From Mucilaginibacter sp. (lineage in GTDB: Bacteria; Bacteroidota; Bacteroidia; Sphingobacteriales; Sphingobacteriaceae), in NCBI RefSeq assembly GCF_035492695.1, contig NZ_DATJJC010000026.1:12846-76845 (forward strand): 64,000 nucleotides of DNA, given 5' to 3'. Position 1 is the first letter of the stretch; the number at the start of each line of letters is the position of its first letter. A model generated the notes under the pieces. It was given only the letters and a program-made list of their open reading frames with translations. It was not told where the DNA came from and did not search any database. A program made the position numbers and the translations under genes. Below, in pieces: positions 15,541-54,260 of this stretch.

Positions 15541-15658
15541 AGTGTTCACGCAAACGCCGCTTGCCAAGCTTTAAACCGGTTCAACTGTTTGATTATCAGT
15601 GTTTCCAATTTTTGGCTATCCCAAAAAGTGCCACAAAATTGACCATTGCGTGAACACC

Positions 15659-16012
15659 TTAGTGTATGTTTTCCTGGTAAGCTTTCAATTGGGTTTTGGA
15701 GGCTCGGTCCATCCAGGCTTTGATCAGTAATATTTTCAGTTCCTCCGGATCAACTTTTGGCAGGTTAACCAGCAGGCAGGGATAATTGCGGTAGTGATCG
15801 GTAAAGAAATAGGTATCAGGATCCTTTGCTATCCATTTGTCGCGTTCATCGGTCCGTATTACCAGCACTTCACCATTTTCCCATAACCGGCAAAGCATTT
15901 TTTTTTGCACATAAAAAGCAGGCGTCCCGTGGCTCAAACCTTCGGTTGTACCCGGCAGCGCCGCCATGGTATTGCGGATAAATTGGAGGTATATGAAGGG
16001 GTCAGTAGTCAT
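15659..16012 (-). CDS. MmcQ/YjbR family protein
   Basis: HGTPAFYV...DPDTYFFTDHYRNYPCLLV pattern. Confidence 0.75.
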   Translation of the reverse strand: MTTDPFIYLQFIRNTMAALPGTTEGLSHGTPAFYVQKKMLCRLWENGEVLVIRTDERDKWIAKDPDTYFFTDHYRNYPCLLVNLPKVDPEELKILLIKAWMDRASKTQLKAYQENIH

Positions 16013-16037
16013 TAGATCCTTATTTGTAATTCCTGTT

Positions 16038-16126
16038 GTCATTTCGAACGACAGAGAGAAATCTTATACACCTTGCAAATCCGCCTGCATCTTCGAAAAG
16101 ATTTCTCTGCGCTCGTTCGAAACGAC
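16038..16126. repeat. REP-like palindromic element, copy 3
   Basis: GTCATTTCGAACG...GAGAAATCTT...AAGATTTCTC...CGTTCGAAACGAC. Confidence 0.8.
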
Positions 16127-16157
16127 ATGTTGGAAGAAAACCAATTATAAAAGCCCT

Positions 16158-16254
16158 GTCATTTCGAGCGTATGCGAGAAATCTTAAACGCTTTACATGC
16201 GTTCCGCCTGTCTGTTCGAAAAGATTTCTCCTCGCTGCGCCCGTTCGAAACGAC
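16158..16254. repeat. REP-like palindromic element, copy 4 (tandem with copy 3)
   Basis: GTCATTTCGAGCG...GAGAAATCTT...AAGATTTCTC...CGTTCGAAACGAC. Confidence 0.8.
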
Positions 16255-16267
16255 AGAGTATATTAAT

Positions 16268-17593
16268 TCAAAACAACTCCACCAGCCTCTCCAGTGCCAT
16301 ACCGCGCGAACCTTTGATCAATACGGTAGATTCTTTTATAGGTTCGTCTCTTAAAGCAGCTATAGCCTGTTCTACTGTAACATAAAATTTAACAGTATCC
16401 GGCTTCCGGCTTCCGGCTTTCGCCTTCTGACTTCCAAATTCACCTCCGATAAAAATCACCTCATCCACTTCCGTATCCAGCGCTTTTCGTATCACCGCAG
16501 CATGTTCTGCAGCCGATTCTTGCCCCATCTCGAACATATCGCCCAAAACTAAAACCTTGCGTTTGGCTGTTAACTTGCCCAGGTTTTCTATCGCAACAAA
16601 CATGCTGCTCGGGTTGGCATTGTAGTAATCACATATCAGTGTATTCGTAGCTGTTTGCGTTATCTGCGACCTGTTGTTTTTAGGCTGATAGCCGCTGATT
16701 CCCGCATTGATCTGTTCCGGTTTCAGTTTGAAATAAACCCCGATGCAAATCGCCGCTAATATATTATCCAGGTTATAGGCGCCGGTCAACTGCGACCTGA
16801 CATCATAACTTTCGCCGGTTTGGTTATTGGTCCATTGCAGGCTCAGGTAGGGCGAATTTTCCGTTAGTTGGCCCGAAACCAGGTTTTCCAGGTCGATACT
16901 TCCATACATCACCACGTTTTTCAGCGATCGCGCATACTGCATCGCCATCAGATCAGTACTGTCACTGTTTACAAAAGTGATACCGTTTGTCGCCTTCATA
17001 TAGTCATAAAGTTCGCCTTTACCTTTTTTCACGCCCTCAACGCCGCCAAATCCCTCCAAATGCGCCTTGCCTACATTGGTTATCAACCCATGTGTTGGTT
17101 GCGAAATGGTACAAAGCAGCCCGATCTCCTTTTGATGATTGGCGCCCATTTCTATCACCGCCGCCTCGTGAGCCGAATTAATAGATAAAATGGTAAGCGG
17201 TACACCGATATGGTTATTCAAATTACCCTGCGTGGCATAAGCATTGAAATGTTGCGATAATACCGCACTGATCAGTTCTTTAGTGGTGGTTTTTCCATTG
17301 GTGCCCGTCAATCCAATAACAGATATGGTCAATTGCCGGCGGTGGTGCCGGGCCAGGTCCTGCAGTGCCGTCAATACATCGTCAACTAAAATATATTGCT
17401 CGCCAAGCCGGTAGGCAGCATTATCGATAATGGCATAGGCCGCGCCTGCGGCTATGGCCTGTCCGGCAAAGCTATTGGCATCAAACTTATCACCTTTCAA
17501 TGCGAAAAACAGGCTGCCCGGTGTAATTTTGCGGGTATCCGTGCTTATGACGGGGTGTTTTAAATAGATCTGGTATAGTTGTTCGGTTGTCAT
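16268..17593 (-). CDS. murF: UDP-MurNAc-tripeptide--D-Ala-D-Ala ligase
   Basis: TDTRKI, GTNGKTTTKE, NNHIGVPLT, DYYNANPSS, LGDMFEMG and LIKGSRG. Confidence 0.96.
   Translation of the reverse strand: MTTEQLYQIYLKHPVISTDTRKITPGSLFFALKGDKFDANSFAGQAIAAGAAYAIIDNAAYRLGEQYILVDDVLTALQDLARHHRRQLTISVIGLTGTNGKTTTKELISAVLSQHFNAYATQGNLNNHIGVPLTILSINSAHEAAVIEMGANHQKEIGLLCTISQPTHGLITNVGKAHLEGFGGVEGVKKGKGELYDYMKATNGITFVNSDSTDLMAMQYARSLKNVVMYGSIDLENLVSGQLTENSPYLSLQWTNNQTGESYDVRSQLTGAYNLDNILAAICIGVYFKLKPEQINAGISGYQPKNNRSQITQTATNTLICDYYNANPSSMFVAIENLGKLTAKRKVLVLGDMFEMGQESAAEHAAVIRKALDTEVDEVIFIGGEFGSQKAKAGSRKPDTVKFYVTVEQAIAALRDEPIKESTVLIKGSRGMALERLVELF
16398..16439. repeat. Six 7-mer units (42 bp, in frame) inside murF
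   Basis: TCCGGCT x3, TTCGCCT, TCTGACT, TCCAAAT. Confidence 0.7.
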
Positions 17594-39368: not shown

Positions 39369-39440
39369 GGTCCCGTAGTTCAACGGATAGAATAGGAGTT
39401 TCCTAAACTCTAGATATGAGTTCGATTCTCGTCGGGACCA
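39369..39440 (+). tRNA. tRNA-Arg (anticodon CCT), CCA not encoded
   Basis: Cloverleaf: acceptor GGTCCCG/CGGGACC, anticodon arm GGAGT-TTCCTAA-ACTCT, T-loop TTCGATT. Confidence 0.93.
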
Positions 39441-39446
39441 CTAAAA
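39425..39446 (+). repeat. attL core (3' end of tRNA-Arg)
   Basis: ATTCTCGTCGGGACCACTAAAA, identical to 53599-53620. Confidence 0.92.
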
Positions 39447-40120: not shown

Positions 40121-40684
40121 TTATTTTTTAATGTGACATTTATAAATGTACATTCGAGAGCTTGACGATAGGTTGGCATCGTATTTTCCGAATATATGCG
40201 TGGTGTCACCGACAGCTATTTGAGCGACTTCATCACGCCAGCCATCTTTATTTTGAGGACAGTTTGAAAATTCTATGGACTCATAAGGATTATCCGCTGA
40301 TTGCATAACAATCAAAGCGCATCCAAAATCGGTTTTTATCTCAGTAATCCTACCAATAACATCAATGGTATTGCCATCGTATTTATTGTCAAATGACACT
40401 TTGTTAGATTTAAAATTATTAAACCAATCTTCTACTGAATAATTTTGAACAAAATCATTTAGACCTACTTCGCCGTCGACCGTTTCAACGCTATCAGATT
40501 GTTTGATAGCATTTGTAATTTGCGCGGTATCATTCAGGTCGTCAGAAATTTTGTGTTTCCATCCAAGTTTTTGACATGCCCATGGTTCTGTTATTACGAC
40601 AATTACTGTAACAACAATTGTTGCAATAACCAATACCAGGGTTCTTAATGTTTCATTACGAAAACGTTTAGGCGTTGAATTCAT
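40121..40684 (-). CDS. Membrane-anchored OB-fold protein (tRNA_anti-like)
   Basis: TM segment, then FKSNKVSFDNKYDGNTIDVIGRITEI...VGDTTHIFG; ATG 40684 preferred. Confidence 0.6.
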   Translation of the reverse strand: MNSTPKRFRNETLRTLVLVIATIVVTVIVVITEPWACQKLGWKHKISDDLNDTAQITNAIKQSDSVETVDGEVGLNDFVQNYSVEDWFNNFKSNKVSFDNKYDGNTIDVIGRITEIKTDFGCALIVMQSADNPYESIEFSNCPQNKDGWRDEVAQIAVGDTTHIFGKYDANLSSSSRMYIYKCHIKK

Positions 40685-41140
40685 TTGAAGGTCTTTAGTC
40701 ACCTTCAGTTCCAAAAGGTATTTAAAAAAATCAAGCGTGGAACTGTAGCCTACTGCGATCAAGGTACTGGTATACCCAAGGACAAATAGACTAAGCCCAC
40801 GCCTGTAGCGTGAGCGTTAATCTTCATTCCTTGTCCTTTTAAAAATTACCAGTTTTTGACAGCAAGTGTGAAGCTAACGCTAAATCGTTATTTCAATATT
40901 TTTTTAATTCTTTATGTTTCCAATAAGCCAAATGGTTAAAGTAAGGCGCTAAGTTCCAAATTATTTTTCAACATTTTTCTATCAGCTCGAAATAGTGCTT
41001 TCTCGTTGTAAACCGAACAAAACCGAACGGTATCTAAACTAAATTTTTCTCAAAATGTGAATAATATTTCCAGGATTTTGAGTTTGCCGTATTTCATGGG
41101 AGTTAATAGGGTCAGGCGGAGCCCTATAAAAAAATTAAAA

Positions 41141-41746
41141 ATGAAATACAATTACTACAACGAAGCACTTTATGTGGAAGTTAAAACCTTAAGTATTCCT
41201 GAATACTATAACAAAAAGGAAATTGAAGGAGAAAATGAAAAATTGCTATTCGATTGCTTTGAAAATGATGGCATCAAAGAACCTTTGATTATTAACAGCC
41301 ATCCCAAAAGATTGGGCAAAATTATCAATGGCGTTAAGCGATTCGAGTATGCAAAGAGAAAGGGTATTGTTGACGTTCCGGTTTATTTTTTATATCTGGA
41401 TGAAACAGACGAAAAGCGAATACACTATGAATTAAGTATTGTAACACGTGAATATTGTATAGCCGAAATAATAGAATATCTACAGCAAAAATGCCTTACC
41501 TACATTATTCCGAACGATTCGCAATCAAGAGAATTTGATGGACTCTTAAGACAGGCGCACAAAAAGTACGAGGCGGCACCAGAGGACAATCAAATCCGAA
41601 AATCCACATTTCCTTTGAGGCTATCCAGCGAATTCAAAAATTATCCTGAAAAGCTACAAAAAATGTACGGCTCTAAATCACAAAACGAAGCTATTGTCAA
41701 GCTTTTGACCGACGCGGTGGAAGGGAGGATTGTGATATGTTATTAA
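41141..41746 (+). CDS. ParB/Srx-like N-terminal domain protein with a possible C-terminal RHH-like domain
   Basis: GIKEPLII...IINGVKRFEYAKRKGIVDVPV resembles the ParBc GxxR motif; ATG 41141 preferred. Confidence 0.7.
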   Translation: MKYNYYNEALYVEVKTLSIPEYYNKKEIEGENEKLLFDCFENDGIKEPLIINSHPKRLGKIINGVKRFEYAKRKGIVDVPVYFLYLDETDEKRIHYELSIVTREYCIAEIIEYLQQKCLTYIIPNDSQSREFDGLLRQAHKKYEAAPEDNQIRKSTFPLRLSSEFKNYPEKLQKMYGSKSQNEAIVKLLTDAVEGRIVICY

Positions 41747-42522
41747 GAGAATTTGACTTAAAACTAATAAATATACTCGGTACTGAATTGATAGGTCAGC
41801 CAGTAAGCAACAACTCCTACAATATTTTGATCAAAGAAAGTAGCTTCATAAACTTAGAAAAGCATAAACCAATAGTCTACCTCGACTTAAACCATCAAAA
41901 ATTTGACGAATTGGTACCCTTATTGGAAAAACTCGAATTTCAAAAATCAACTCGGAAAACGCTCGGCGATCGGAATGAAAGTATCCTGTTTGGAGCAGTA
42001 ACAGCTAAAATTAACCATGACAATTTTTGTAATGTCGGTGCGACAATTTTACGGTCACCAAAGCTCAATCAATTGCTAAAAATAAAATATAGCACCATTG
42101 CTAATGAGATAATGAAAACATATTTAGAACAATGGCAAAAAATAGGAATGTCTGTATTTAAAAAAAGCGGTATTCATACAGATTGGCAAATGGCTGATAC
42201 TTTTTGGACCAGCGGCATAATCAACAAAAACAGTCCACATAATTTTCACCTTGACAACGACAATTCAAGAAACGGTTATTCAGCAATGATCACATTAAAG
42301 CACAATATGTCAGGAGGATATATAGTGTTTCCTGAATATGCTCTTGCAGTTGAGGTATCCAACCGATCATTGATTTTCTTTTGCGGAAAAGATATTGTTC
42401 ATGGTGTTTCTGATATTAATCTCAAAAAAGGAGGTTTTCGGTACAGTATGGTTTACTATACGACCGCAGATTTGAAATATTGTGACTCTTATGCCAATGA
42501 AATGAAGAAGGCTGAGATATGA
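41737..42522 (+). CDS. TET/JBP-like 2OG-Fe(II) dioxygenase (phage gp2-type)
   Basis: WTSGIIN, FHLD (HxD), GGYIVFPEY, VHGV (second His) and RYSMVYY (RxS), with the spacing of the TET/JBP fold. Confidence 0.8.
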   Translation: MLLREFDLKLINILGTELIGQPVSNNSYNILIKESSFINLEKHKPIVYLDLNHQKFDELVPLLEKLEFQKSTRKTLGDRNESILFGAVTAKINHDNFCNVGATILRSPKLNQLLKIKYSTIANEIMKTYLEQWQKIGMSVFKKSGIHTDWQMADTFWTSGIINKNSPHNFHLDNDNSRNGYSAMITLKHNMSGGYIVFPEYALAVEVSNRSLIFFCGKDIVHGVSDINLKKGGFRYSMVYYTTADLKYCDSYANEMKKAEI

Positions 42523-42839
42523 GAAAGTCTACTATAAGAAACCAGCATAAAGTTATCCGGGAGTTGATAGCCAAAAATTTCAATGTATGCGAAGCCTGCT
42601 CAAGTGCCAAGATCGGTAGAACTCAATTTTACGCTTGGCTAAAAACTGATGAAAATTTCTGCAATGCCATTAATAATGCTATGAACATCCATTTGGGTAT
42701 AGTCCAAAATCTGCATTTGCTAAAGGTATTTCAAAACGGCACGGTGCCAGATACCCAAAACCTCTTGTCACAAGTCGGAATTCAGATGAAAAGGTTCAAA
42801 AAATTACACAACCATTTGATTAATAATATTTTAAATTAA
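42519..42839 (+). CDS. HTH protein resembling a phage terminase small-subunit N-terminus (phBC6A51-like)
   Basis: NVCEACSSAKIGRTQFYAWLKTDENFCNAINNA matches the NVS.AC...GI.R.T.Y.W...D..F pattern; ATGA coupling. Confidence 0.65.
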   Translation: MRKSTIRNQHKVIRELIAKNFNVCEACSSAKIGRTQFYAWLKTDENFCNAINNAMNIHLGIVQNLHLLKVFQNGTVPDTQNLLSQVGIQMKRFKKLHNHLINNILN

Positions 42840-42897: not shown

Positions 42898-44082
42898 ATG
42901 AGACTTACATACTCTATAAAAACGGTATTGAGGCCTGACAAAATCAAGGCTGACGGGATGGTGCCTATATATTACTCTGTAAGAGTTGGGCCGTCTACAA
43001 CTCGAATCCCAACTGGCAAGACCATTCTTTTGAAAGACTGGAATAAAGCAAGTTCATCACCAAAATTGAACTGTAAATTAAATGAATTATTGAATTCGTA
43101 CTTATCAGCAGAAATGACAAAATGGAGAGTTTTTATGATGAGCCGGGAAAGTTTAAGCCAGGCAATCACCTTTACCATTGCAACATCCTATTTTGATCAA
43201 AACGCAAAACTAACATTTTTCACTTTTTGGGAACAACAACTTGATTTGTGGAACAACAGCAAGCGAGACAATACCTTAAAATCTTATCGTTCAGCTTTGA
43301 AGATGCTAAAATCATTTAATGGCAAACTGAACTTTGGAGACCTTACATATGACACAGTGCAGAAGTTGGATTTGTATATGGCGAATGTAAAGGGTAATGC
43401 AGTTGGCGGCAGATTCGTAAAGCACAAATGCCTGAAAGCAATGTGTAATGAAGCGATAAAAAAAGGGTATTTGACCAAGAACCCCTATATCCATTTCAAA
43501 ATCAAAGCCTCCACCGGCAAAAGAAATTTCTTGAGTATTTCAGAAGTAAGACAATTGATGAATTTGGATGTCCCGGCAGAAGAGGTATTTCAACACAAAA
43601 CTAAAGACCTGTTTCTGTTCAGTTGTTTTACAGGGTTACGTTACAGCGATGTGATGAATTTAAAATGGGAAGATATTAAAAATGACCCTTACACCATAAC
43701 GCTCAAGATGACCAAGACTTCAAAACAAATAACCATACCTCTAACCGCTAATTCAAAAGCAATCATTGAAAAATATGGGAAACATATTATCAAATCACCA
43801 CAAACAAAGGTTTTCCCTCAAATCGCAAATCAGGTACTAAATCGAAACATAAAAGACATTATGAAAAATGCAGGGATCAACAAGGACATCAGCTACCACT
43901 GTTCCAGGCATACTTTTGCATCCAATTTAATTGAAGCTAACACCAATATACTATTTATTAAAGATTTGATGGGTCATTCCCGTATCACCGAGACACAGGT
44001 ATATGCCAAAGCTTTGGAAGCTGACTTGGTCAATTCGATTAATAATATGTCGGACATCTACAATTTTAGCCATGCAATTTGA
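42898..44082 (+). CDS. Tyrosine recombinase/integrase (Bacteroidota Arm-DNA-bind_5 type)
   Basis: VPIYYSVRV arm domain, TGLRYSD, HCSRHTFA and MGHSRITETQVY give a complete R-K-H-R-H-Y set. Confidence 0.95.
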   Translation: MRLTYSIKTVLRPDKIKADGMVPIYYSVRVGPSTTRIPTGKTILLKDWNKASSSPKLNCKLNELLNSYLSAEMTKWRVFMMSRESLSQAITFTIATSYFDQNAKLTFFTFWEQQLDLWNNSKRDNTLKSYRSALKMLKSFNGKLNFGDLTYDTVQKLDLYMANVKGNAVGGRFVKHKCLKAMCNEAIKKGYLTKNPYIHFKIKASTGKRNFLSISEVRQLMNLDVPAEEVFQHKTKDLFLFSCFTGLRYSDVMNLKWEDIKNDPYTITLKMTKTSKQITIPLTANSKAIIEKYGKHIIKSPQTKVFPQIANQVLNRNIKDIMKNAGINKDISYHCSRHTFASNLIEANTNILFIKDLMGHSRITETQVYAKALEADLVNSINNMSDIYNFSHAI

Positions 44083-44083
44083 C

Positions 44084-44746
44084 ATGGCGACAACTGCATC
44101 ATCAAATAAATTAATCCATGCGACACATATCTACAAGAATCGAAACTCTAACCATGAAATTAAATCAATTATGACACCTCAAACGGCAACCAAAGCAAAA
44201 TCACCATGTCAGACCCAGCTTACTCACCAGTTCAAAAGACAGCTTGAAAAAAAGTTAAAACGAATATATATCAACAAAGAATTTATTGAATTCATTGAAG
44301 AAACAATCAAAAAATTTCCGGTGAGAGATAAACTCGCCGCACTTTACTTTTTCAAAAAATTGGCAGTTCAACTATTGAGAGCACCTGATCCAGACCATTA
44401 TAAAGCCTTTAAAGATGATTATGATAATGAACTCTCAGAAATAGTAGATGAGCAAAAGCATTATAATCCTGTAAGGTGGCTTAATGCAGAGATTGAATTT
44501 ATAACAAATACAGCCGAGCGTTTGACAGCTGAAGATGTAAATGAACGGTTAAACGTAATGCAACATGCTAAACAAAGGTTATCTAAGCCCTGGCTGACCA
44601 AAGAAGATGTTATGGATCTGTTCAATATCAGTAAATCAACCTTGAACAGACGTGTAGCAGACGGCATGCCTGCCCACAAGAATGGGAAATTTGTTTATTT
44701 CTATTTGGAGGAAGTCAACGAATGGATGAAGCAAGAAGCAGCCTAA
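44084..44746 (+). CDS. Excisionase-like HTH_17 protein with an N-terminal extension
   Basis: C-terminal WLTKEDVMDLFNISKSTLNRRVADGMPAHKNGKFVYFYLEEVNEWM; start at ATG 44084 or 44171. Confidence 0.75.
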   Translation: MATTASSNKLIHATHIYKNRNSNHEIKSIMTPQTATKAKSPCQTQLTHQFKRQLEKKLKRIYINKEFIEFIEETIKKFPVRDKLAALYFFKKLAVQLLRAPDPDHYKAFKDDYDNELSEIVDEQKHYNPVRWLNAEIEFITNTAERLTAEDVNERLNVMQHAKQRLSKPWLTKEDVMDLFNISKSTLNRRVADGMPAHKNGKFVYFYLEEVNEWMKQEAA

Positions 44747-44899: not shown

Positions 44900-45271
44900 A
44901 TGAAAAAAGCAAAAACACCACAAAACAAAGAGCACGCTAAACAGCAGCACTGTCCGACCTGTATTCGTTACGTAAAGTACAATGAGCGTTACCGGGATTA
45001 CGTTTGCGATAAATGTATTAAACAAGCAGTAGACAAAGACGGAAATTCGATAGCGTTCTTTAATATCACGGAAAGCGGCCACGGAGTTCAAGGAAAATAT
45101 ATGGAAGGCGAGAAACTTTACAGGTCAACTCTTTGCATCATCAAAGGCGTTAAGTGCAATGCAGAAGAAGCCTACTTTGGGGGCATTGTTATAAGACCTG
45201 TAAAGAAGGAAAAAGGCAGCAAAACCCCCTCAGCTAAAGAAGTTGACAAAAAAGGTCTATCTGAAGCTTGA
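44900..45271 (+). CDS. Cys-rich small protein, probable Zn-binding
   Basis: CPTC...CDKC, two further Cys and a FGGIVI motif. Confidence 0.65.
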   Translation: MKKAKTPQNKEHAKQQHCPTCIRYVKYNERYRDYVCDKCIKQAVDKDGNSIAFFNITESGHGVQGKYMEGEKLYRSTLCIIKGVKCNAEEAYFGGIVIRPVKKEKGSKTPSAKEVDKKGLSEA

Positions 45272-45499: not shown

Positions 45500-46537
45500 T
45501 CAAAGCATAAACTGAAAACCATTGTTGCTTGCAATAGTAATTAATGGTTGAACCTGGTCAAAGAACCTTTCTTGGGTAAAATAATGTGGACTTAAAGCGG
45601 GGAACAAAGTCAAATAGTCTTCAAGAAAGCGATTCTTTGGTGACTTATAACGGATAATATCAACGGCCTCTTTTTGAAGCTTGAAGAATGGCAAAAAATG
45701 TTTGTCCAGAATTGGTAAACGATCACTCTTGCTACTATTGAAAGAACGATCCGCAGGTATCAAATTCCAAATCAGATCGTGAGAAACAAAAGCGTAAGGG
45801 ACAAAGTGTTCAACAGCATAATCACCAAAAACAAGCTTTTTGTTGGTGTAAATGCAATCAACGCTACCAAGCTCACGAATAACAATATCCCAAAAATTTC
45901 TGCGCTGTTCAACCAATGCCTTTCTAACCGGCAGTTTAATTAGCTTGTTTGGTATGTCAGGCACATTGGGATTCTTGGCTTGTAGGTACATAGCCAAATT
46001 CCAGTAACAGAAATCTTTGAGCACCCGTGCGTTTGTTCGAAGGTATTCAATCCACGCCGGATTGATCTGAATTTGATCTTTGCTCAATGCATACAGACAA
46101 CAGTTTGTAAAAGTCTTGGATAGATGATATGCTTCTTTCAAGTCATCTGCTTTGAACCAAGGGCTTAAAAAACGATGTGGGACTTCAGAGTTGAAATATT
46201 GTAATTCATGGATTGAACCTTTATTCTTTGATGTTGATAAGGTTTCCAAAATCATCTGCCTGGGCGCATCAATCGTCAAACCTTCAATTGTTTTCAAATT
46301 TTCTATGGCTTGTTGCAGTTTATCCTGCTTACCAAAAGAAACGTGGAAATAATTGACGGTAAACCAAGATTGCGCGATCATATCAGCGAAAAGCTCATGC
46401 TTTTGAATGGTTATCTTTCCATGCTCAACCTGATTAATTATTGATAAAAACCAATAGAATTTGTAGGTAGCTGATGTTTTGTTAAAACATGCCGCGAGTA
46501 GATTTATGGGTAAACTCTGATAATCAGGAAGATTCAT
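45500..46537 (-). CDS. HNH endonuclease with an N-terminal helical domain
   Basis: CIYT...VEHFVPY...IWNLIPADRSFNSSKSD HNH core; N-terminal ATYKFYWF. Confidence 0.85.
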   Translation of the reverse strand: MNLPDYQSLPINLLAACFNKTSATYKFYWFLSIINQVEHGKITIQKHELFADMIAQSWFTVNYFHVSFGKQDKLQQAIENLKTIEGLTIDAPRQMILETLSTSKNKGSIHELQYFNSEVPHRFLSPWFKADDLKEAYHLSKTFTNCCLYALSKDQIQINPAWIEYLRTNARVLKDFCYWNLAMYLQAKNPNVPDIPNKLIKLPVRKALVEQRRNFWDIVIRELGSVDCIYTNKKLVFGDYAVEHFVPYAFVSHDLIWNLIPADRSFNSSKSDRLPILDKHFLPFFKLQKEAVDIIRYKSPKNRFLEDYLTLFPALSPHYFTQERFFDQVQPLITIASNNGFQFML

Positions 46538-46653
46538 TAAGTAAAAATACAGCTTAAATAAGATAACCTTAATGCGAGATCAAAATAGGGTGAAAACACG
46601 GGTTGACAAGACCAATCCATAGAGTTAACTTATTCGCCATTATCCAAAACCAA

Positions 46654-47490
46654 ATGTCACAATTATTGAAGCGCCTAATTACAGTTAATGTAATCTTATT
46701 TGTTTTTAAGTTATCGGTTTTTGGCCAACAAATTCAACCGAAGACTCATCTGGATAGCCTTTACGTCACATATCCCTTAAAACCAAATTCAAAATGGCCT
46801 GAATTCCTTGAGTGGGACAATCCATATTTTAAGGCTATCATAGACCCAAAATTGCGTCAAAGTGTAGTTACTTATGGCGTTTTCACGGTACAGGAAGATG
46901 CAATGGTCACCAACCTCAAAATTCCCAGAAAAGGTAAATATGCCCGTTGGCATCCTTTCTTTGGTTATCCCAATGAAGATGCTTTTTATAAAGACATAAA
47001 CAAAACACTCGTTAAACCTGACGAGTATTCCAAAGGGCATTATTCAGGATGGGAATTAAATGCCTACGCCGTAAACGGTGTTTTGTTGTCGGACACGTAC
47101 GATTTTAATGAGGGGATCGAAAGACAGGCTCAAAATGAAGGAACTGAATTGCAAGTCGAATATCTCACCAGAGCTTTGGTAGGAAATAAAATGTTCGCAA
47201 AAAGAGTGCGCTATATTGGTCCTTCCTTTCCCCAGGTGCAGTATTGGAAAGGCTCGTGGGGTTCATTCAAACTTTTTAACGTTGACGGCATTTCTAAAAA
47301 CTACAGTGCAGTTTATTGGAATCTAATCAAATATGGTAACGAGCTTCATGCGTATTGGTTTCCAAATGATCTGACTGCGACCGCCAAATTGGGTTATCAG
47401 CATTTTGAAATTCCGGTTGATTCATCTGATGTCAACAATAAGGGGCTGATTCAACGGCTCGGATTTGATCCTCAACAAGTTTTAAATTAA
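46654..47490 (+). CDS. Exported DNA/RNA non-specific (Serratia-type) endonuclease-like protein
   Basis: Signal peptide; YSKGH corresponds to DRGH, followed by QAQNEG (metal-binding Asn) and GP; ATG 46654 preferred. Confidence 0.6.
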   Translation: MSQLLKRLITVNVILFVFKLSVFGQQIQPKTHLDSLYVTYPLKPNSKWPEFLEWDNPYFKAIIDPKLRQSVVTYGVFTVQEDAMVTNLKIPRKGKYARWHPFFGYPNEDAFYKDINKTLVKPDEYSKGHYSGWELNAYAVNGVLLSDTYDFNEGIERQAQNEGTELQVEYLTRALVGNKMFAKRVRYIGPSFPQVQYWKGSWGSFKLFNVDGISKNYSAVYWNLIKYGNELHAYWFPNDLTATAKLGYQHFEIPVDSSDVNNKGLIQRLGFDPQQVLN

Positions 47491-47584
47491 CGATTTTAAT
47501 GTTTCAAACCGATAGAAATTTTACCCATTGCTTTACCTCGCAGATGGAAATTACGCGTTTATACAGGAAAGTAATGGAAAAAAG

Positions 47585-47601
47585 GATTCCGGATAGGAAT
47601 C
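47585..47601 (-). terminator. Terminator of the AbiJ-like gene
   Basis: GATTCC-TATCC-GGAATC on the minus strand followed by CTTTTT. Confidence 0.5.
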
Positions 47602-47638
47602 GAACCCACTTACAGTAAGGGTCATATAAGTCTTGTTA

Positions 47639-48691
47639 TTAAATTCGCCCCTCTATCGTCCCAATTAAATTAATAATTGAAATTGTAGCGCTTGCACATA
47701 AACTTGCATCTTTTTTTGAAGCGGTTCTTTTATGAGTTAATTCATTTGCCAAATCTAATGTCGCTTTGGCGTATCTTCTTAATGTTTCATTAGATGAGCC
47801 GGCAAACTCGACGTTGATATATGCTTCCAACATTCTTTTTGCGTCTGTCTTGCTGATGTCGGTTCCGTCAGTACTTGGATGCTTTTCTTTATTAAATACA
47901 GCTTGTGCTAAAGTGATAATTGTTTCCCTGCTCAATAGGCCGATGACCTGAAATTGCTCCTCTGTCTTGGCATCAAGTTGTCTAACCCTGATCTCATTTA
48001 TAGCTCGCTCAATTCGTTCCCAATCTGATAAATCAACTGTTATATTTAATGAGTTTTGAGAAGGCGATTCAGTTAGCGCTCGCATCAATGTATCATACAT
48101 TTCGGTAATAAACAAGCGCCTTTCGTGATATTTTGAAAATGTAGTACTCCATTTTGCATACCATTCCCATAAGTCCTGATATGGATTTGGATTTTTGCAG
48201 TTAAGTTTCTGTAACGCTTTATCAACAGCAACAAACTTAACTTTGTAAGCATCATTTACTTCTTGGATGCGTTGGCCACCTGTCGATACAGATATCATGG
48301 TATTTTTAAGGGATTCAACCTCCTTTAAGAGGGTCTCTTTGGTTGTGCTTCCATTGATTTTTCCCCAATCAATATTTTGTTGTGCTTTAGGCACTATCAA
48401 AATGCTCGTAATTTGCGCATGATCGATATGCCGAGTCGCTATATCAAATTTCTGGAGCAGCGTTGTTTCTAACTGCTGAATTCTGTCTCTTACTTTGACG
48501 AACACCTTCACCTCTAAGCTGACAAAAAGAGTAAAATAATCGATTCCTCCGTTCCAATTGTCGTGCCCAGTTTGTTCGACTGTAAGATTAGCACTTGAAA
48601 GAAGATTGTTTAATTCTGCAAGGTTATCAGCTTTTAATATTTCAGAAACAGTATAAAGTATTGGTCTAAAGTTATCTTGGTTGTCGAACAT
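47639..48691 (-). CDS. AbiJ-like abortive-infection protein (NTD3-like plus Abi_C-like)
   Basis: DNWNGG; VSTGGQRIQEVNDAY...NPNPYQDLWEWY..W; FQVIGLLSRE...DAKRML...LANELTHKRTA. Confidence 0.7.
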   Translation of the reverse strand: MFDNQDNFRPILYTVSEILKADNLAELNNLLSSANLTVEQTGHDNWNGGIDYFTLFVSLEVKVFVKVRDRIQQLETTLLQKFDIATRHIDHAQITSILIVPKAQQNIDWGKINGSTTKETLLKEVESLKNTMISVSTGGQRIQEVNDAYKVKFVAVDKALQKLNCKNPNPYQDLWEWYAKWSTTFSKYHERRLFITEMYDTLMRALTESPSQNSLNITVDLSDWERIERAINEIRVRQLDAKTEEQFQVIGLLSRETIITLAQAVFNKEKHPSTDGTDISKTDAKRMLEAYINVEFAGSSNETLRRYAKATLDLANELTHKRTASKKDASLCASATISIINLIGTIEGRI

Positions 48692-48825
48692 CTCTTATTT
48701 CTTACCCTAATTTATTCAATAAATTTAACATAAAATCCCTATAAAATACCGTTAAAACACGGGTTGCAGCATAACGGCATAACTGGTAGATTAGGCAAGT
48801 TATAAACCTTTTTATCACATTTATC

Positions 48826-50142
48826 ATGTCATATAAATTTGTAAAACCTAGAGGACGGGGTGGATTCGGAATAGTAAACGTGGTGACGGATAATGCCGGA
48901 ACCGAATGGGCTCAGAAAATTTTTAATTTTGATAAAACGCACCCCCTTTATAGTAATGCTTTAAGGAGATTTAAGAGAGAGGCAAAATATCAAGAGTCAA
49001 TAGCCAATAAGAATATTGTTCCTGTAATTAGTCGCGACCTCGATACCGATCCACCATCATTTGTGATGCCTCTCGCAGAGGCATCTTTAGAGGAAGATAT
49101 GAAAAATGGTATCGTTAACGCATCCAATTTTTTGGATGTCATCTTTGATATAATGTCAGGTTTAGAGGCAATCCATATACTTGGAATTTTTCATCGAGAT
49201 TTGAAACCAAGCAATGTTTTGAGGTTTAAAGATCCATCTGGTGGAAGAGATTACTATGCACTTAGTGATTTTGGGATGATGTCCGTTAAGGAAACCAGTG
49301 TAACAACCATCACCGAGACCCAAATGCGTAAATTAAGCGATAGTTATACTGCCCCAGAGGTAGCAAATAGCTTAAAGGCGGCATCCGTACAGTCAGACAT
49401 ATACTCATTGGGGTGTATTATTCATGATTTTGTAGGTGGCAACAATAGGCAAATGGGCCACGAGATCAATGAAGGAGGGGCATATGGCGGAATTATGCTA
49501 TCGTGCACGCGAGGTGATGTTTCTAAGCGATTCAAAAGTATTGCGTCAATGAGAGATTCTTTCAGTGATGTCGATCATGTAGCATACACTACCTCAACGC
49601 CAATTGGCCAGAAACTAAGTGAGCTACTTGCTCAAAATGACCCTTTATTATTGACCGAAGAAACTGTTGGCGAAATTGCTGATTTTTTAGAAAGGAAAAC
49701 ACCCGATTCGGTGGCTGTGTTTCATATGATGAATATACCGCTGATAGAGAAAATGATTACATTCCCTTATCAGGCACGACGGATCGCATTAATGTACGCA
49801 ACTTATGTTAATCACGCGTCATTTGATTTCGCATATTGCGATATTGCTGCAAATAGGCTTAAGACCTTCATGGACAATTTAGAAATTGATGTAAAAGTGC
49901 AAGGTCTCTTAGCGTTACTTAAGATGGGAACCCGGCACAATCGATGGTTCGTTGAAGGGATATTTCAACGAGCATTAGACCACCGCGCCGATCAAGAACT
50001 CGTTCAACGAATGTGTATCGAATTTAGAATTAATGAAGATGAGTTTTGTCACTACATAAAGCATTTAATTCATTCTTTATCTACCTCGGTAAGTTCTTTT
50101 AATCCTAAATTAGCAGCGCTAATTCAGAGTAAATGTTACTAA
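48826..50142 (+). CDS. Hanks-type Ser/Thr protein kinase with a C-terminal helical domain
   Basis: GRGGFG, AQK, RFKRE, HRDLKPSN, DFG, YTAPE and SDIYSLG are all intact. Confidence 0.93.
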   Translation: MSYKFVKPRGRGGFGIVNVVTDNAGTEWAQKIFNFDKTHPLYSNALRRFKREAKYQESIANKNIVPVISRDLDTDPPSFVMPLAEASLEEDMKNGIVNASNFLDVIFDIMSGLEAIHILGIFHRDLKPSNVLRFKDPSGGRDYYALSDFGMMSVKETSVTTITETQMRKLSDSYTAPEVANSLKAASVQSDIYSLGCIIHDFVGGNNRQMGHEINEGGAYGGIMLSCTRGDVSKRFKSIASMRDSFSDVDHVAYTTSTPIGQKLSELLAQNDPLLLTEETVGEIADFLERKTPDSVAVFHMMNIPLIEKMITFPYQARRIALMYATYVNHASFDFAYCDIAANRLKTFMDNLEIDVKVQGLLALLKMGTRHNRWFVEGIFQRALDHRADQELVQRMCIEFRINEDEFCHYIKHLIHSLSTSVSSFNPKLAALIQSKCY

Positions 50143-50850
50143 GTGTTAAAGTCGTATATTAAATCTCTTACTGGTCCAAGACAAAATAACGAAGACTATC
50201 CTCTTTTGCGCGATTTTGGAGCACTTACGATAGCTTGTATCGCGGATGGGGTAGGCGGCAACAACTGTGGTGAAATAGCTTCTAAGTTATCCGCGGACTT
50301 GTTTTTTTCAGCTCTAAAGACGGCTGGCGCTGTTGATAATTTAAAAAACCTAATAATTGACATTGATGCCCAACTAAAGGATTATTCAAAAAGCCATCCC
50401 CTGTGTAGTGGAATGGCTACGACGCTATCGGCGTGTATAATTCAAGATCATTTTTTAAAAGGAGTTCATGTCGGAGATTCACGAGTGGTGATCTTGAGAG
50501 GAAACGGATTAAAACAGCTGACAGATGAGCATACTGAATCGGCAAGGCTTTTGAACGCAGGCATTATAACGAAAAGTGAATTTGTTGAACATCATCAAAG
50601 AAATATTTTAACAAGTGCTCTTGGCAGCAGTAGGGCTTTGGTTATACAGGAATTTGAATTTAAGCTTAATAGCCGAGATCGAATTATTTTAAGCTCAGAT
50701 GGGTTTCATGAGGTCATAGGAAAATTAACGTTAAGAGACTTGTCACTGGCAAATATTAATATAGATGAATTTGGACAAGCTATACTTGATTTTCTCGAGA
50801 ATAGTAAATTAAAGGACAATTGTACCTTCCTGCTATTAGAGGTAGAATAA
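50143..50850 (+). CDS. PP2C/PPM family Ser/Thr phosphatase
   Basis: RQNNED, IADGVGG, GMATT, VGDSR, SDG and DNCT; the GTG directly abuts the kinase stop. Confidence 0.92.
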   Translation: MLKSYIKSLTGPRQNNEDYPLLRDFGALTIACIADGVGGNNCGEIASKLSADLFFSALKTAGAVDNLKNLIIDIDAQLKDYSKSHPLCSGMATTLSACIIQDHFLKGVHVGDSRVVILRGNGLKQLTDEHTESARLLNAGIITKSEFVEHHQRNILTSALGSSRALVIQEFEFKLNSRDRIILSSDGFHEVIGKLTLRDLSLANINIDEFGQAILDFLENSKLKDNCTFLLLEVE

Positions 50851-50851
50851 T

Positions 50852-51271
50852 TTAATGCTTGATCAATGCTGCAATTACGTTTTCAATTGTGTGTTCAATC
50901 CTTGAGGCACGCAGCTCGCATTCAAAAACCGTTATCACATTCCAATCGATAGAAGAAAGCTTTTGATTATTTGTACGATCGCGAAGTGTATTTCTTTCAA
51001 TTTTATTAAGCCAATATTCTTTGTTAGACTCCGGAAGTATAGATCGTTTACAATTCTGATGGCCATGCCAAAAACATCCGTGAACGTTGATGACTGCACG
51101 ATATTTCGGAAGCACTATATCTGGTGTTCCAGGTAGTTTCTTCTGATGCAATGTGAATCGAAACCCCAGTTTATGTAAACGATGTCGTAAGGCGAGCTCA
51201 GGCTTAGTGTTGAAGCTCTTAACCCGGCGCATTATATCGCTGCGTTTCTCTTTTGAAAAAGTGTCAGCCAT
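50852..51271 (-). CDS. vsr: Very-short-patch repair endonuclease
   Basis: MADTFSKEKRSDIMRRVKSFNTKPE, LPGTPD, VHGCFWHGH and VFECE. Confidence 0.95.
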   Translation of the reverse strand: MADTFSKEKRSDIMRRVKSFNTKPELALRHRLHKLGFRFTLHQKKLPGTPDIVLPKYRAVINVHGCFWHGHQNCKRSILPESNKEYWLNKIERNTLRDRTNNQKLSSIDWNVITVFECELRASRIEHTIENVIAALIKH

Positions 51272-51297
51272 ATATTAAAACTTATTATGTAATTTCG

Positions 51298-52221
51298 CTA
51301 TATCGCAACGTTAAATCTAACGATGTTATTTTCATTGTAGACATTGATCGCTTCTCCTACAAATTTCGCGAGGTTAACAGGCACGGCATTGCCAATAAGC
51401 TGTTCAAGCGTCGACTTGTTGGTGACAACCCATTTGAAGTCCTTTGGAAAGGTTTGTATTCGAGCCCGTTCATGGGCAGTAAGTGGCCGTACCTTCGAAA
51501 CATCCTTTATGGCATCTCCATCATGGAACTGATATTTAGGCGGAATGGGGCGGTTTACGCCTCTTATAGTAGGGCTTGGTTCATCTACCGAAAAAATACC
51601 TCTGCGGGAATAGCTACGGGCGTGACGATAGTAATATTCGATTGGTAATTCTTCGCCAAAATATTCACGAATGGTCATGCTTTTCGCTCTCAAAGAATGT
51701 TCTAATGCTGGTTTGAGATAATCGTCTTGCTCATTCAACTTTCCGATTAGAAACATTCGTTTCCGCTTTTGTGGTACATTGCAATAACTGGCATCGAGAA
51801 CAATTTCGGTTAATCCATACCCAGCGGATTTAAATAACCGTTTGGCATTTTGATAAATCTGACTTTTGTTAATGCGTTCAACGTTCTCCATTAAAAACCA
51901 TTCGGGTAAAATTTTGGTCACAATCTTTGCATACGATTGAGTTAAATCGCCCCTTCCTCCATTTTCGTTGCGTTTACCGGCACTTGAAAAGTCCTGACAT
52001 GGTGGGCCGCCTGCAATTAAGTCGGGTCTGAATTGTTTAATATGCGTAACTGCAGTATTAACATCACTTAAATCAAAATCAAATATCGGGTGGCTAAAAT
52101 TTTCATTATAAACTGCAATAGCAGATTCCCATTTTTCATAGGCCGCTACAACATCCATACCTGCTTTAGAAAGGCCTAAGCTTAATCCACCGCAACCTGC
52201 AAATAAGTCAACTGTTCTCAT
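51298..52221 (-). CDS. DNA (cytosine-5)-methyltransferase
   Basis: DLFAGCGG, GGPPCQDFS, ENV, QKRKR, ARIQTFP and IGNAVP; ATG 52221. Confidence 0.96.
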   Translation of the reverse strand: MRTVDLFAGCGGLSLGLSKAGMDVVAAYEKWESAIAVYNENFSHPIFDFDLSDVNTAVTHIKQFRPDLIAGGPPCQDFSSAGKRNENGGRGDLTQSYAKIVTKILPEWFLMENVERINKSQIYQNAKRLFKSAGYGLTEIVLDASYCNVPQKRKRMFLIGKLNEQDDYLKPALEHSLRAKSMTIREYFGEELPIEYYYRHARSYSRRGIFSVDEPSPTIRGVNRPIPPKYQFHDGDAIKDVSKVRPLTAHERARIQTFPKDFKWVVTNKSTLEQLIGNAVPVNLAKFVGEAINVYNENNIVRFNVAI

Positions 52222-52240
52222 TTTCGCGAATATTAAAAGC

Positions 52241-53314
52241 CTAATTAAATAAATTTGCCGCACTAACTAAAACCGCGTCAAATCTTCTTTCCGGCGACAA
52301 CAATAATTGACCATCGCCAAGTATAATATTTCTGATTTCTTCTTTGGTGATCCTTGGTTTTATAAGCTCTTCCGAGAGCATCAGACGATTAGTCTTTTTA
52401 CCTGGAACAGAAAAAGCCTTGTCATTTTTCATTGTATATGTTAATTTCTGCAGAATATCGTCATGATGAAATGTTCCTTTGATAGATACCTCATTCAACA
52501 TAAAAAAAAGCTGTATTAGTGCTCTCATCGGTCGACTGATTTCAGTAGTAACATCAGCTGGCACCGCCGCCGCTTCACTCATAAAAAGTTTAGTAAAAGC
52601 TAAGTCCGACCAAACGAACACATCTAAACAATTATCCGCTAAGGTTGACGATTTACCAATAGTCTTCCAAATAGGCTGAATTAGCGCTGGTTTTTGAAGT
52701 GATGTGTTTTCCTTTATAAGGGCGCTCATTCTTTCCCAAATGTCCCCTAACCGAGGATTGACTTGTGCGGCTTCCATATAGCTTCCAACATTACCGAATC
52801 CGTTTTTGCCAAAGTACTTTCTAAGCCCTTCATGTCGATCTTTATACATAGCGGCCAAACTGCAAGCCAAAAAGTGTATTGAAGGCATTCGTATGACTAA
52901 TTCGCTGCCCCACTGATCCTCACTAAACCTGAATGTGCTTTCGTCGGGTAACGTTGTCAATTTTACCTCGTATCCCGCTAAAATCTCTGATGTCGAATTA
53001 TTCATTAGCATCAAATCTACCCGTGGAGGCGATCCAATCGAATAAGTCTGATACGGAGTATATGGGGATTCAAAGGAATAAAATAAATTATCGTCCACTG
53101 GACTTAACTGAAATAACGCCTCACCACTTATATAGTCTTTCACCAGGTTCCCATTTTCATCGAGCTTTAGATAAACACACGGCATTTTCTTGCTGTCCAT
53201 ATATGCAATTAGTCCTGCCGGAAATGATGAGTTGAAGTTGTTCTTACTCCAGCTATCTTTATCAGTAAAATCTCGATTGGAGTGCTTTATACCGAACAAC
53301 GATGGTTTAGCCAT
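52241..53314 (-). CDS. HindVP-like type II restriction endonuclease
   Basis: PSLFGIKHSNRDF...W.KN.FNSSFP, EVKLTTLPD and MKNDKAF recall the HindVP family; directly upstream of a C5-MTase and vsr. Confidence 0.8.
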   Translation of the reverse strand: MAKPSLFGIKHSNRDFTDKDSWSKNNFNSSFPAGLIAYMDSKKMPCVYLKLDENGNLVKDYISGEALFQLSPVDDNLFYSFESPYTPYQTYSIGSPPRVDLMLMNNSTSEILAGYEVKLTTLPDESTFRFSEDQWGSELVIRMPSIHFLACSLAAMYKDRHEGLRKYFGKNGFGNVGSYMEAAQVNPRLGDIWERMSALIKENTSLQKPALIQPIWKTIGKSSTLADNCLDVFVWSDLAFTKLFMSEAAAVPADVTTEISRPMRALIQLFFMLNEVSIKGTFHHDDILQKLTYTMKNDKAFSVPGKKTNRLMLSEELIKPRITKEEIRNIILGDGQLLLSPERRFDAVLVSAANLFN

Positions 53315-53737: not shown

Positions 53738-53867
53738 CTTTTAGGCGAGACTACTACTCAACGAATTTCGTCTTAACGTCTTGATATTCAATTTGTTCAA
53801 TTGATGAACATCTTGATACCGATTAGCTGCAAGCCTACATTTGTTTAACTTTTTAATGCTTGTAATT

Positions 53868-54260
53868 ATGAAAATGAATTTCAGTTTGCTTTTTTACTTG
53901 AAAAAGCAAAAAATCTATGAGTCGGGTTCTAAGCCTATTTATATGCGCATTACCGTTAATGGCAAACGCGTAGAAGTCTCTGCGGGGAGAGATTGCGAGC
54001 CGTCCGTATGGAATAGTCATGCGGGTCGGGGAATTGGCAGTAAATCAGAAATAAGGGCTTTAAATGGCTATTTGGATACCCTGCAGGCTAAGGTATTTAA
54101 CGCACACCAACAATTGATAGCTGCTGGAGAAGATGTCTCTGCGGACAGGTTACGGGATCAGTTCATTGGCCGTTCCGAAAAGACAAATTTTATTGTTGAA
54201 TTATTCAATGAGCATAAGACCCCGAAAATTTCGGGGTTTTTGTTAAAAAATACCCCATAA
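53868..54260 (+). pseudogene. Truncated tyrosine integrase (arm-binding domain only)
   Basis: MKMNFSLLFYLKK...PIYMRITVNGKR arm domain; similarity ends near FNEHK, with no SAM-like core or catalytic domain. Confidence 0.85.

Follow-up and report, generated by a model that had tools for sequence, protein, structure and literature searches.

A predicted ParB-dependent thymine dioxygenase and a small-terminase-derived protein in the core of a virion-less integrative island of Mucilaginibacter

The window analyzed here is a 64,000-nucleotide (nt) stretch of contig NZ_DATJJC010000026.1 (positions 12,846 to 76,845, forward strand; RefSeq assembly GCF_035492695.1) from Mucilaginibacter sp., a member of the Sphingobacteriaceae. 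It contains a 14.2-kb integrative island that carries three overlapping genes, encoding a ParB-like protein, a TET/JBP dioxygenase, and a helix-turn-helix (HTH) protein derived from a phage small terminase subunit (TerS). We propose, with a probability of about 0.42, that this island is satellite-like, a hitcher on phages with the complete block running from ParB through the dioxygenase to TerS and the large terminase subunit (TerL), and we infer both its dependence on a helper and its packaging. The initial annotation of the cassette presented it as a candidate undescribed system, which is not supported: ParB-dependent 5-methylpyrimidine dioxygenases were characterized in phages in 2025–26 (PMC13229309), and the enzyme pair is probably a further example of that class. 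What appears to be undescribed is the setting, in which a bare ParB and dioxygenase pair, with a shortened TerS and an integrase, occupies the exchangeable core of virion-less Sphingobacteriaceae islands.

The three genes have the coordinates and overlaps that were initially reported for them:

41141..41746, + strand: ParB-like protein, 201 amino acids (aa); Pfam ParB_N E 4.5e-4 (below cut-off), and matches to six PHROG ParB-like families
41737..42522, + strand: predicted 5-methylpyrimidine dioxygenase of the TET/JBP (5mYOX) family, 261 aa; Pfam Tet_JBP E 2.2e-7, phrog_6059 E 3.7e-24
42519..42839, + strand: TerS-derived HTH protein, 106 aa; phrog_4044, "terminase small subunit"

The ParB-like and oxygenase genes overlap by 10 nt, and the oxygenase and HTH genes by 4 nt (ATGA).

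The predicted fold and the catalytic residues identify the 261-aa protein as a TET/JBP (5mYOX) nucleic-acid dioxygenase. Its Pfam PF12851 score (30.7 bits) lies under the curated cut-off of 34.9, whereas the homologue from a type-II island (locus L054) reaches 56.5 bits, and phrog_6059 is matched over the full length of the window protein. The catalytic residues, which had been read as intact from the sequence, are indeed invariant in 10 close homologues of 48–76% identity (H171, D173, H222, R235, and S/T237), and they are likewise kept in the phage relatives. In an AlphaFold2 model of the protein (pLDDT 76, pTM 0.77), the 26 best PDB matches all belong to the TET family (CMD1, CcTet, NgTET1, TET2), with AlkB-type enzymes ranking after them, so that the best structural match is not a non-nucleic-acid 2-oxoglutarate oxygenase, the outcome that the initial annotation had named as speaking against it. 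The model superimposes on predicted phage TET/JBP proteins with a TM score of 0.81, and profile matches to the PDB sequence set, although weak, are all to TET-family members. A HMMER scan of 1.84 billion representatives returned 1166 relatives with a clear step in score: the island subfamily comprises six full-length representatives above 260 bits and one fragment (186 bits), and the remainder score below 180. This subfamily was found solely in virion-less islands and not in complete prophages, which is the opposite of the prophage-only occurrence that the initial annotation had also named as speaking against it. Scanning GTDB representative genomes with TET patterns yielded two distant actinobacterial matches and no others, a search of a plasmid collection yielded one distant match in Prescottella and no others, and NCBIfam gave nothing useful for either the TET or the HTH protein. 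The cysteine at position 249 is conserved, but just 12 residues follow it in window-type enzymes, compared with ∼25–45 in type-II islands and phage relatives.

The ParB-like gene is taken to begin at the ATG at 41141, where its homologues also begin; an alternative start, the GTG in the same frame at 41057, would lengthen the protein by 28 residues. The protein consists of a ParB N-terminal (CTPase-fold) domain followed by ∼100 further residues, and at 201 aa it has no room for both the canonical HTH DNA-binding and the dimerization domains. A word-indexed homologue search with the window protein returned the query alone. The family profile matches the N-domains of ParB/Spo0J/Noc proteins in the PDB (E 1e-14), and in all 10 related islands compared below, the TET gene is preceded by a ParB-like gene. 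The ParB-like protein is predicted to activate the adjacent dioxygenase. Two tandem direct copies of AAACCGAAC, separated by a single A, occupy positions 41010–41028, ∼115 nt upstream of the start codon and within a 378-nt divergent intergenic region; they are a possible operator. Repeat scans of the region upstream of the cassette gave nothing decisive, and the Bacteroidetes-type promoter pattern had neither a match near the cassette nor any enrichment.

The HTH protein is related to phage small terminases. All 10 of the family members match phrog_4044 (best E 1.8e-9), and among the IMG/VR loci with enough downstream sequence, a TerL homologue begins within a few nt of the stop codon of the TerS homologue in 62 of 66. 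Among cultured phages, the family is represented by a Riemerella phage protein and by a protein of Flavobacterium phage 1/32 that is annotated as TerS and has TerL downstream of it; synteny and the profile of the phage family provide the link to TerS, and a tblastn search of the window protein against cultured phages returned nothing. In the alignment, the 106-aa protein corresponds to the N-terminal two-thirds of a homologous small terminase of Bacteroidota phages, and the C-terminal tail is missing: the island versions (∼93–119 aa) stop or diverge ∼25–30 residues short of the C-terminus of the ∼118-aa phage protein. In the islands, the following gene is an integrase rather than TerL. The protein thus has the N-terminal HTH domain homologous to TerS, but neither the full length nor the position upstream of TerL, and by sequence it is TerS-derived while lacking the latter two features, both of which define a functional TerS. 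Together with the ParB profile (E 1e-14) and the TET fold, the phrog_4044 matches bear out the initial description of a ParB-like, TET, and small-terminase-like cassette.

To place the trio among phages, we compared 40 IMG/VR loci that hold the closest viral relatives of the TET protein (25–43% identity). Nearly every one of these loci has a ParB-like homologue upstream of TET, abutting or overlapping it in most cases and otherwise a few genes away. An amino acid:DNA transferase (AADT) is encoded in 10 of the 40 loci, and a C5-methyltransferase (C5-MTase) in one. The best matches to both the TET and the TerS proteins of the window come from a single phage locus (L014), in which the gene order is ParB, GATase, AADT, TET, TerS, TerL. 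A similar order occurs in the cluster B mycobacteriophages (e.g., Phelemich), where gp1 is ParB, gp2 TET-like, gp3 AADT, gp4 a FAD oxidoreductase, gp5 TerS, and gp6 TerL. In Phelemich (L053, 810–2548), gp3 is annotated as a hypothetical protein and is an AADT (PF18724, E 2e-21). The labels "queuine tRNA-ribosyltransferase" and "DpdA-like," given to the TET-like gp2 of Phelemich and of many other actinophages, look like an annotation error that has spread between records.

The phage ParB-dependent 5-methylpyrimidine dioxygenases oxidize thymine (T) to 5-hydroxymethyluracil (5hmU) post-replicatively on double-stranded DNA (dsDNA), and they require a cognate ParB that has nucleotide-binding and C-terminal domains and no DNA-binding domain (PMC13229309). 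The same study reports that thymine-hypermodification genes are associated with the ParB-dependent enzymes, whereas phage dioxygenases acting on 5-methylcytosine (5mC) form separate clades with an adjacent C5-methyltransferase; that in vitro, ParB-dependent and ParB-independent phage enzymes alike oxidize 5mC to about the same extent as T; and that the enzymes act selectively at certain sequences (YTY, NTR), leaving part of the thymines unmodified, which its authors suggest may serve epigenetic-like regulation. Bacteria account for 1.5% of the superfamily in that work, in which integrases, prophages, and satellites go unmentioned. Homology and context most plausibly assign the window enzyme to this known ParB-dependent class, with thymine as its predicted main substrate and 5mC as a possible secondary substrate. 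Thymine is favored over 5mC because AADT genes accompany 10 of the 40 viral loci and C5-MTase genes one, and because C5-MTase genes occur in two of the 10 islands. The same counts do not uphold the coupling to the island's own C5-MTase that was initially proposed, and they make its alternative, a thymine substrate decoupled from the methyltransferase, the better reading.

The boundaries of the island are defined by an exact 22-nt direct repeat, ATTCTCGTCGGGACCACTAAAA, whose two copies (100% identical) lie 14174 nt apart, the left one overlapping the 3′ end of a tRNA gene. Between them, GC content is 0.35–0.39, against ∼0.45 in the flanks. Searches with PHROG families and for TerL homologues found no TerL, portal, capsid, head, or tail genes in the window island, and the initial view of a virion-less element bounded by attachment (att) sites stands. 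The site and the genes that follow the trio are:

39369..39441, + strand: tRNA-Arg (CCT), the integration target (ARAGORN; Rfam tRNA 63.8 bits)
39425..39446: attL, the left 22-nt repeat at the 3′ end of tRNA-Arg(CCT) (repeat search)
42898..44082, + strand: tyrosine integrase with Arm-DNA-bind_5, SAM_5, and catalytic domains (Pfam), 58 nt downstream of the cassette
44084..44746, + strand: excisionase/AlpA-like HTH_17 protein with a helical N-domain and an excisionase-like C-domain (Pfam HTH_17; NCBIfam TIGR01764 excisionase domain)
44900..45271, + strand: 123-aa Zn-ribbon protein of the island backbone, with same-position homologues in L008, L010, L054, L056, L058, and L059
53599..53620: attR, the right copy of the 22-nt repeat (repeat search)

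The HTH_17 gene begins 1 nt past the integrase stop codon, and in a structural model of its product, the best match of the C-domain is the RdfS excisionase, although this match is weak (E 0.03). The Zn-ribbon protein has no family match in Pfam, PHROG, or NCBIfam. The gaps between successive genes of the ParB, TET, TerS-derived, integrase, and HTH_17 array (−10, −4, +58, and +1 nt) suggest that the array is co-transcribed as one unit. Just outside attR, a 139-aa open reading frame (ORF; 53841–54260) encodes an N-terminal Arm-DNA-bind_5 integrase domain alone, and low GC runs on to ∼54500; the ORF has the appearance of a remnant left by a previous insertion into this tRNA-Arg site, as in tandem accretion.

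Related elements share this arrangement. The comparison covers ∼10 elements, mostly derived from metagenomes, and the trio followed by the integrase and HTH_17 genes occurs in 10 distinct elements, with the Zn-ribbon gene next in most. At every inspected locus with an island-type TET, the order is ParB-like, TET, small HTH, integrase, HTH_17. The islands are ∼12–14 kb where both ends are seen, and wherever a flank is visible, they sit at tRNA-Arg(CCT) or tRNA-Glu(TTC). The integrases are 41–62% identical across all related elements, and no TerL homologue was found in any island. A search with the HTH_17 protein gave 26 homologues; these led to L054, which occupies the corresponding MetRS/tRNA-Arg site in the completely sequenced Mucilaginibacter sp. 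KACC 22063 (CP117877) and bears a type-II trio, to the further trio-bearing elements L058 and L059, and to L056 and L057, which are relatives without the trio. Decay is visible in L055, where the HTH gene and a broken integrase are left and ParB and TET are lost, and in L005, whose integrase is split.

It is the comparison with L054 that separates the history of the trio from that of its backbone. The integrase, HTH_17, and Zn-ribbon proteins of L054 are 58–63% identical to those of the window, as close as any relative, but the TET and ParB proteins are 28% and 25% identical, respectively, and the TerS-derived protein is barely alignable. The L054 TET protein is nearer to that of phage locus L014 (37%) than to that of the window (28%). 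A close backbone combined with a divergent trio that lies nearer to a phage version indicates that the trio was replaced as a block from another phage lineage, and conservation together with block exchange places the trio, as a unit, in the element core and not in its cargo. Several of these elements also carry an HTH_36-type protein upstream of the integrase (L056 8365–8787, L057 7782–8240, L141 1672–2118), which may be an island replication or regulatory protein. From L056 and L057, this gene might have been taken for a substitute for the trio; this was rejected, as L141 has both, and it is an additional upstream gene.

The remaining genes of the window island, none of which belongs to the conserved array, are:

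40121..40762, − strand: membrane-anchored OB-fold (tRNA_anti-like) protein, divergent from the cassette (Pfam PF12869 E 6.5e-10; weak PHROG Sie-like match)
45500..53314: variable cargo, comprising an HNH_4 nuclease (−), 295-aa and 350-aa proteins, a Ser/Thr kinase and PP2C, Vsr (−), a C5-MTase (−), and a HindVP-type restriction endonuclease (REase; −) (Pfam, PADLOC)

The OB-fold protein has homologues in some related islands (L008, L057, L141) and is possibly superinfection-exclusion-like. Pfam upholds the initially listed cargo as far as the C5-MTase, Vsr, type II (HindVP-type) REase, and HNH_4 nuclease are concerned. The "non-specific nuclease" does not stand: the corresponding 295-aa ORF (46603–47490) has no Pfam, PHROG, or NCBIfam match, although a pairwise comparison aligns it weakly (E 2e-4) with a portion of an Endonuclease_NS protein from one of the related islands. 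The 345-aa HNH_4 protein (45500–46537, −) has a Cas9-like HNH_4 domain at residues 228–275, an N-terminal region to which no domain is assigned, and no PADLOC match. At 48826–50850, a PD-T4-6-like Ser/Thr kinase (438 aa; PADLOC) is followed by a PP2C phosphatase whose start lies 1 nt after the kinase stop, and the two are likely an anti-phage pair. The REase (E 6.6e-115), the C5-MTase that overlaps it, and Vsr form a self-contained restriction-modification (R-M) unit (50852–53314, −), which is variable cargo outside the cassette.

Cargo differs from element to element. It includes a C5-MTase with HATPase_c_3 and PP_RS20740, CBASS with MksE, ImuB/DnaE2 cassettes, lanthipeptide/bacteriocin genes, and FRG, Schlafen-like, HNH_5, GmrSD-like, and KAP NTPase genes. 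The C5-MTase is present in the window island and in L001, and was not found in the other eight within the flanks examined. The ImuB/DnaE2 cassettes are of SOS mutasome type, with a 241-aa protein, an ImuB-like (IMS) protein, and a DnaE2-like error-prone polymerase (L005 13322–18731, L056 11819–17253, L059 11792–17226, L141 6779–12240). The trio-bearing island L058 has a GmrSD_N-type (modification-dependent restriction) gene at 14701–15670, a notable companion for a base-modifying module. In L010, four 71-nt repeats (5638–5921) duplicate a portion of the neighboring tRNA-Met region, and eight 87-nt tandem repeats (15492–16400) lie inside a 448-aa cargo ORF.

Several known systems resemble parts of this arrangement. 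The pair is most like the phage ParB-dependent T-dioxygenases of 5mYOX clade C1 (e.g., 5mYOX176/ParB176; O'Toole et al., PNAS 2026, PMC13229309), which have an adjacent cognate ParB-like gene and no adjacent C5-MTase, and whose relatives lie beside thymine-hypermodification genes and terminases. It differs from them in belonging to a virion-less integrative island of a bacterial chromosome, near an integrase; in having no downstream hypermodification genes (kinase, AADT, GATase, or glycosyltransferase); and in the 12-residue C-terminal extension after the conserved cysteine. The order of ParB, dioxygenase, and TerS is shared with the left end of actinophages (Phelemich) and with the L014 block (TET ∼24–31% identical), and the TerS of L014 is homologous to the island HTH protein; the phages, however, go on to TerL, portal, head, and hypermodification enzymes, whereas the island, with its TerS shortened, goes on to an integrase and excisionase. 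The phage 5mC dioxygenases of clades A/B (Burke et al., PNAS 2021, PMC8256090) share the superfamily and act post-replicatively on DNA, but they lie immediately beside a C5-MTase and glycosyltransferases, without ParB, while the methyltransferase here is part of a distant R-M and Vsr cargo unit.

As an element, the island is closest to phage satellites that encode a TerS or a TerS-binding protein themselves (SaPI/PICI, Rpp; VEIMEs, Eppley et al., 2022; PICMIs, PMC10803314). Like these, it is small, has a tyrosine integrase and an AlpA/excisionase-like gene, carries defense cargo and no virion genes, and has a TerS relative most similar to that of co-occurring phage lineages. Among marine virion-packaged integrative elements, TerS genes are present in some, and integrated copies of some were found in Flavobacteria genomes (10.1101/2022.07.26.501625); the PICMIs show how small satellites can be. 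On the other hand, the island has no known helper, and a primase/rep module of its own, a further mark of satellites, is missing from what Pfam, PHROGs, and NCBIfam recognized in the window island. A DNA base-modification module goes unmentioned in the PICI, VEIME, and PICMI literature compared, and no satellite is described for the Sphingobacteriaceae in the literature found.

A helper-dependent island is favored because the block is of phage origin and has been exchanged as such, because TerL and virion genes are missing, and because an integrase and excisionase stand beside a DNA-marking enzyme. Expression of integrase and excisionase together with such an enzyme and a relative of a packaging protein is what one would expect of an element whose induction leads to its exit from the chromosome. 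Upon induction, the array of ParB, dioxygenase, TerS-derived protein, integrase, excisionase-like protein, and Zn-ribbon protein would be expressed as a unit, and the integrase and excisionase would excise the island. The ParB-like protein and the dioxygenase would then place the helper's thymine mark (T to 5hmU on dsDNA) on island DNA. Finally, the TerS-derived protein, which would be recognized by the helper terminase or would redirect it, could bind island DNA or the helper TerS, so that the helper terminase packages the island.

Several observations weigh against this proposal. Most known satellites have a replication gene, and none is recognized in this backbone. Searches turned up neither a helper phage nor an excised form, and neither virion-derived reads nor transcripts (no RNA runs were found), IMG/VR holds no island-type copy, and one soil metagenome, whose coverage of the island is thin and fragmentary, contained no reads joining the att junction. 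The missing 25–30 C-terminal residues of the TerS-derived protein may mean that direct contact with TerL is lost. On the enzymatic side, the substrate and the ParB dependence are predictions here, the published enzymes act on 5mC in vitro as well, and the published ParB-dependent enzymes are longer than the window TET after the conserved cysteine. The evidence base of ∼10 elements, mostly metagenomic, is also small.

The trio could instead be a resident epigenetic or regulatory device that needs no helper and places 5hmU at specific sites of the island or host, with the HTH protein as a DNA-binding or transcription factor (e.g., for integrase and excisionase control, or self marking). We regard this as unlikely, yet as deserving serious consideration, given the sequence-selective, partial action of the published enzymes and their authors' own suggestion of epigenetic-like regulation (PMC13229309), the loss of the TerS C-terminal tail, the position of the cassette directly upstream of the integrase and excisionase genes, and the failure to find a replication or virion-interaction gene. 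It leaves unexplained, however, why ParB, dioxygenase, and TerS are constantly together and are exchanged as a block for the version of another phage lineage, and if the trio is co-expressed with the integrase and excisionase, the island could hardly carry a constitutive mark and stay stably integrated. This same position beside integrase and excisionase, in the backbone and not in the variable cargo, points to a life-cycle role and speaks against an interference function, in which the truncated TerS would be a decoy on the pac site or a poison of the TerS ring of invading phages from the donor lineage, and the ParB and dioxygenase would alter phage or host DNA and so disturb modification-dependent steps of the phage itself. 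Known satellites do block helper packaging through TerS-binding proteins (Rpp, E. coli PICIs), the cargo of these islands is mainly defensive (R-M, PD-T4-6-like kinase, CBASS, GmrSD-like, and KAP NTPase genes), and the protein is without the tail that follows the HTH and helical core in phage TerS. Even so, none of the three proteins matched a PADLOC model and a thymine oxidase would strike host DNA as well, and we consider anti-phage interference improbable.

Two further explanations carry still less weight. That the dioxygenase turns the 5mC made by the island's C5-MTase (a HindV-type R-M enzyme) into 5-hydroxymethylcytosine, as a second self mark, draws on the presence of such a methyltransferase in the window island and L001 and on the in vitro oxidation of 5mC by the published phage enzymes about as well as T (PMC13229309). 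Eight of the 10 trio-bearing islands have no C5-MTase within the examined flanks, though, and in the window the methyltransferase is 8.8 kb off, on the opposite strand, in variable cargo beside its own REase and Vsr. Moreover, the closest phage relatives go with thymine-pathway genes and not with C5-MTases, and the phage 5mC dioxygenases belong to separate clades with an adjacent C5-methyltransferase (PMC13229309); we therefore judge this coupling very unlikely. The least credible explanation, and one we hold to be highly improbable, is that of a decaying prophage remnant whose three leftover genes lie functionless beside an integrase, as the initial annotation had offered as its alternative. 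The genes are phage-derived, the virion genes are gone, and decay is seen in L005 and L055; nevertheless, the order is intact and every catalytic residue is kept across 10 distinct elements, and one backbone is combined with differing cargo and with a trio replaced as a block. Independent decay would not yield a TerS-derived gene that always abuts an integrase and never TerL.

In its fullest form, the helper-dependent reading would make these islands the first satellite family of the Sphingobacteriaceae (Bacteroidota), in which a ParB-activated thymine dioxygenase of the element's own and a TerS-derived protein mimic the helper's mark for packaging, and in which the trio is swapped as a block to follow helper lineages. 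We offer this form tentatively, as it is rather less probable than helper dependence itself; if true, it would add DNA-modification mimicry to the strategies of satellites. The role of ParB-dependent thymine dioxygenases is itself a matter on which their discoverers speculate, between defense and epigenetic-like regulation (PMC13229309). The tempting link from the oxidase to a cytosine methylase is corrected here as unsupported. In cultivable soil bacteria (e.g., Mucilaginibacter sp. KACC 22063), the pair occurs stripped of hypermodification enzymes, and it thus provides a simple, tractable genetic system in which to ask what 5hmU does alone, whether ParB targets it, and whether mobile islands adopt the DNA modification of phages that they exploit.

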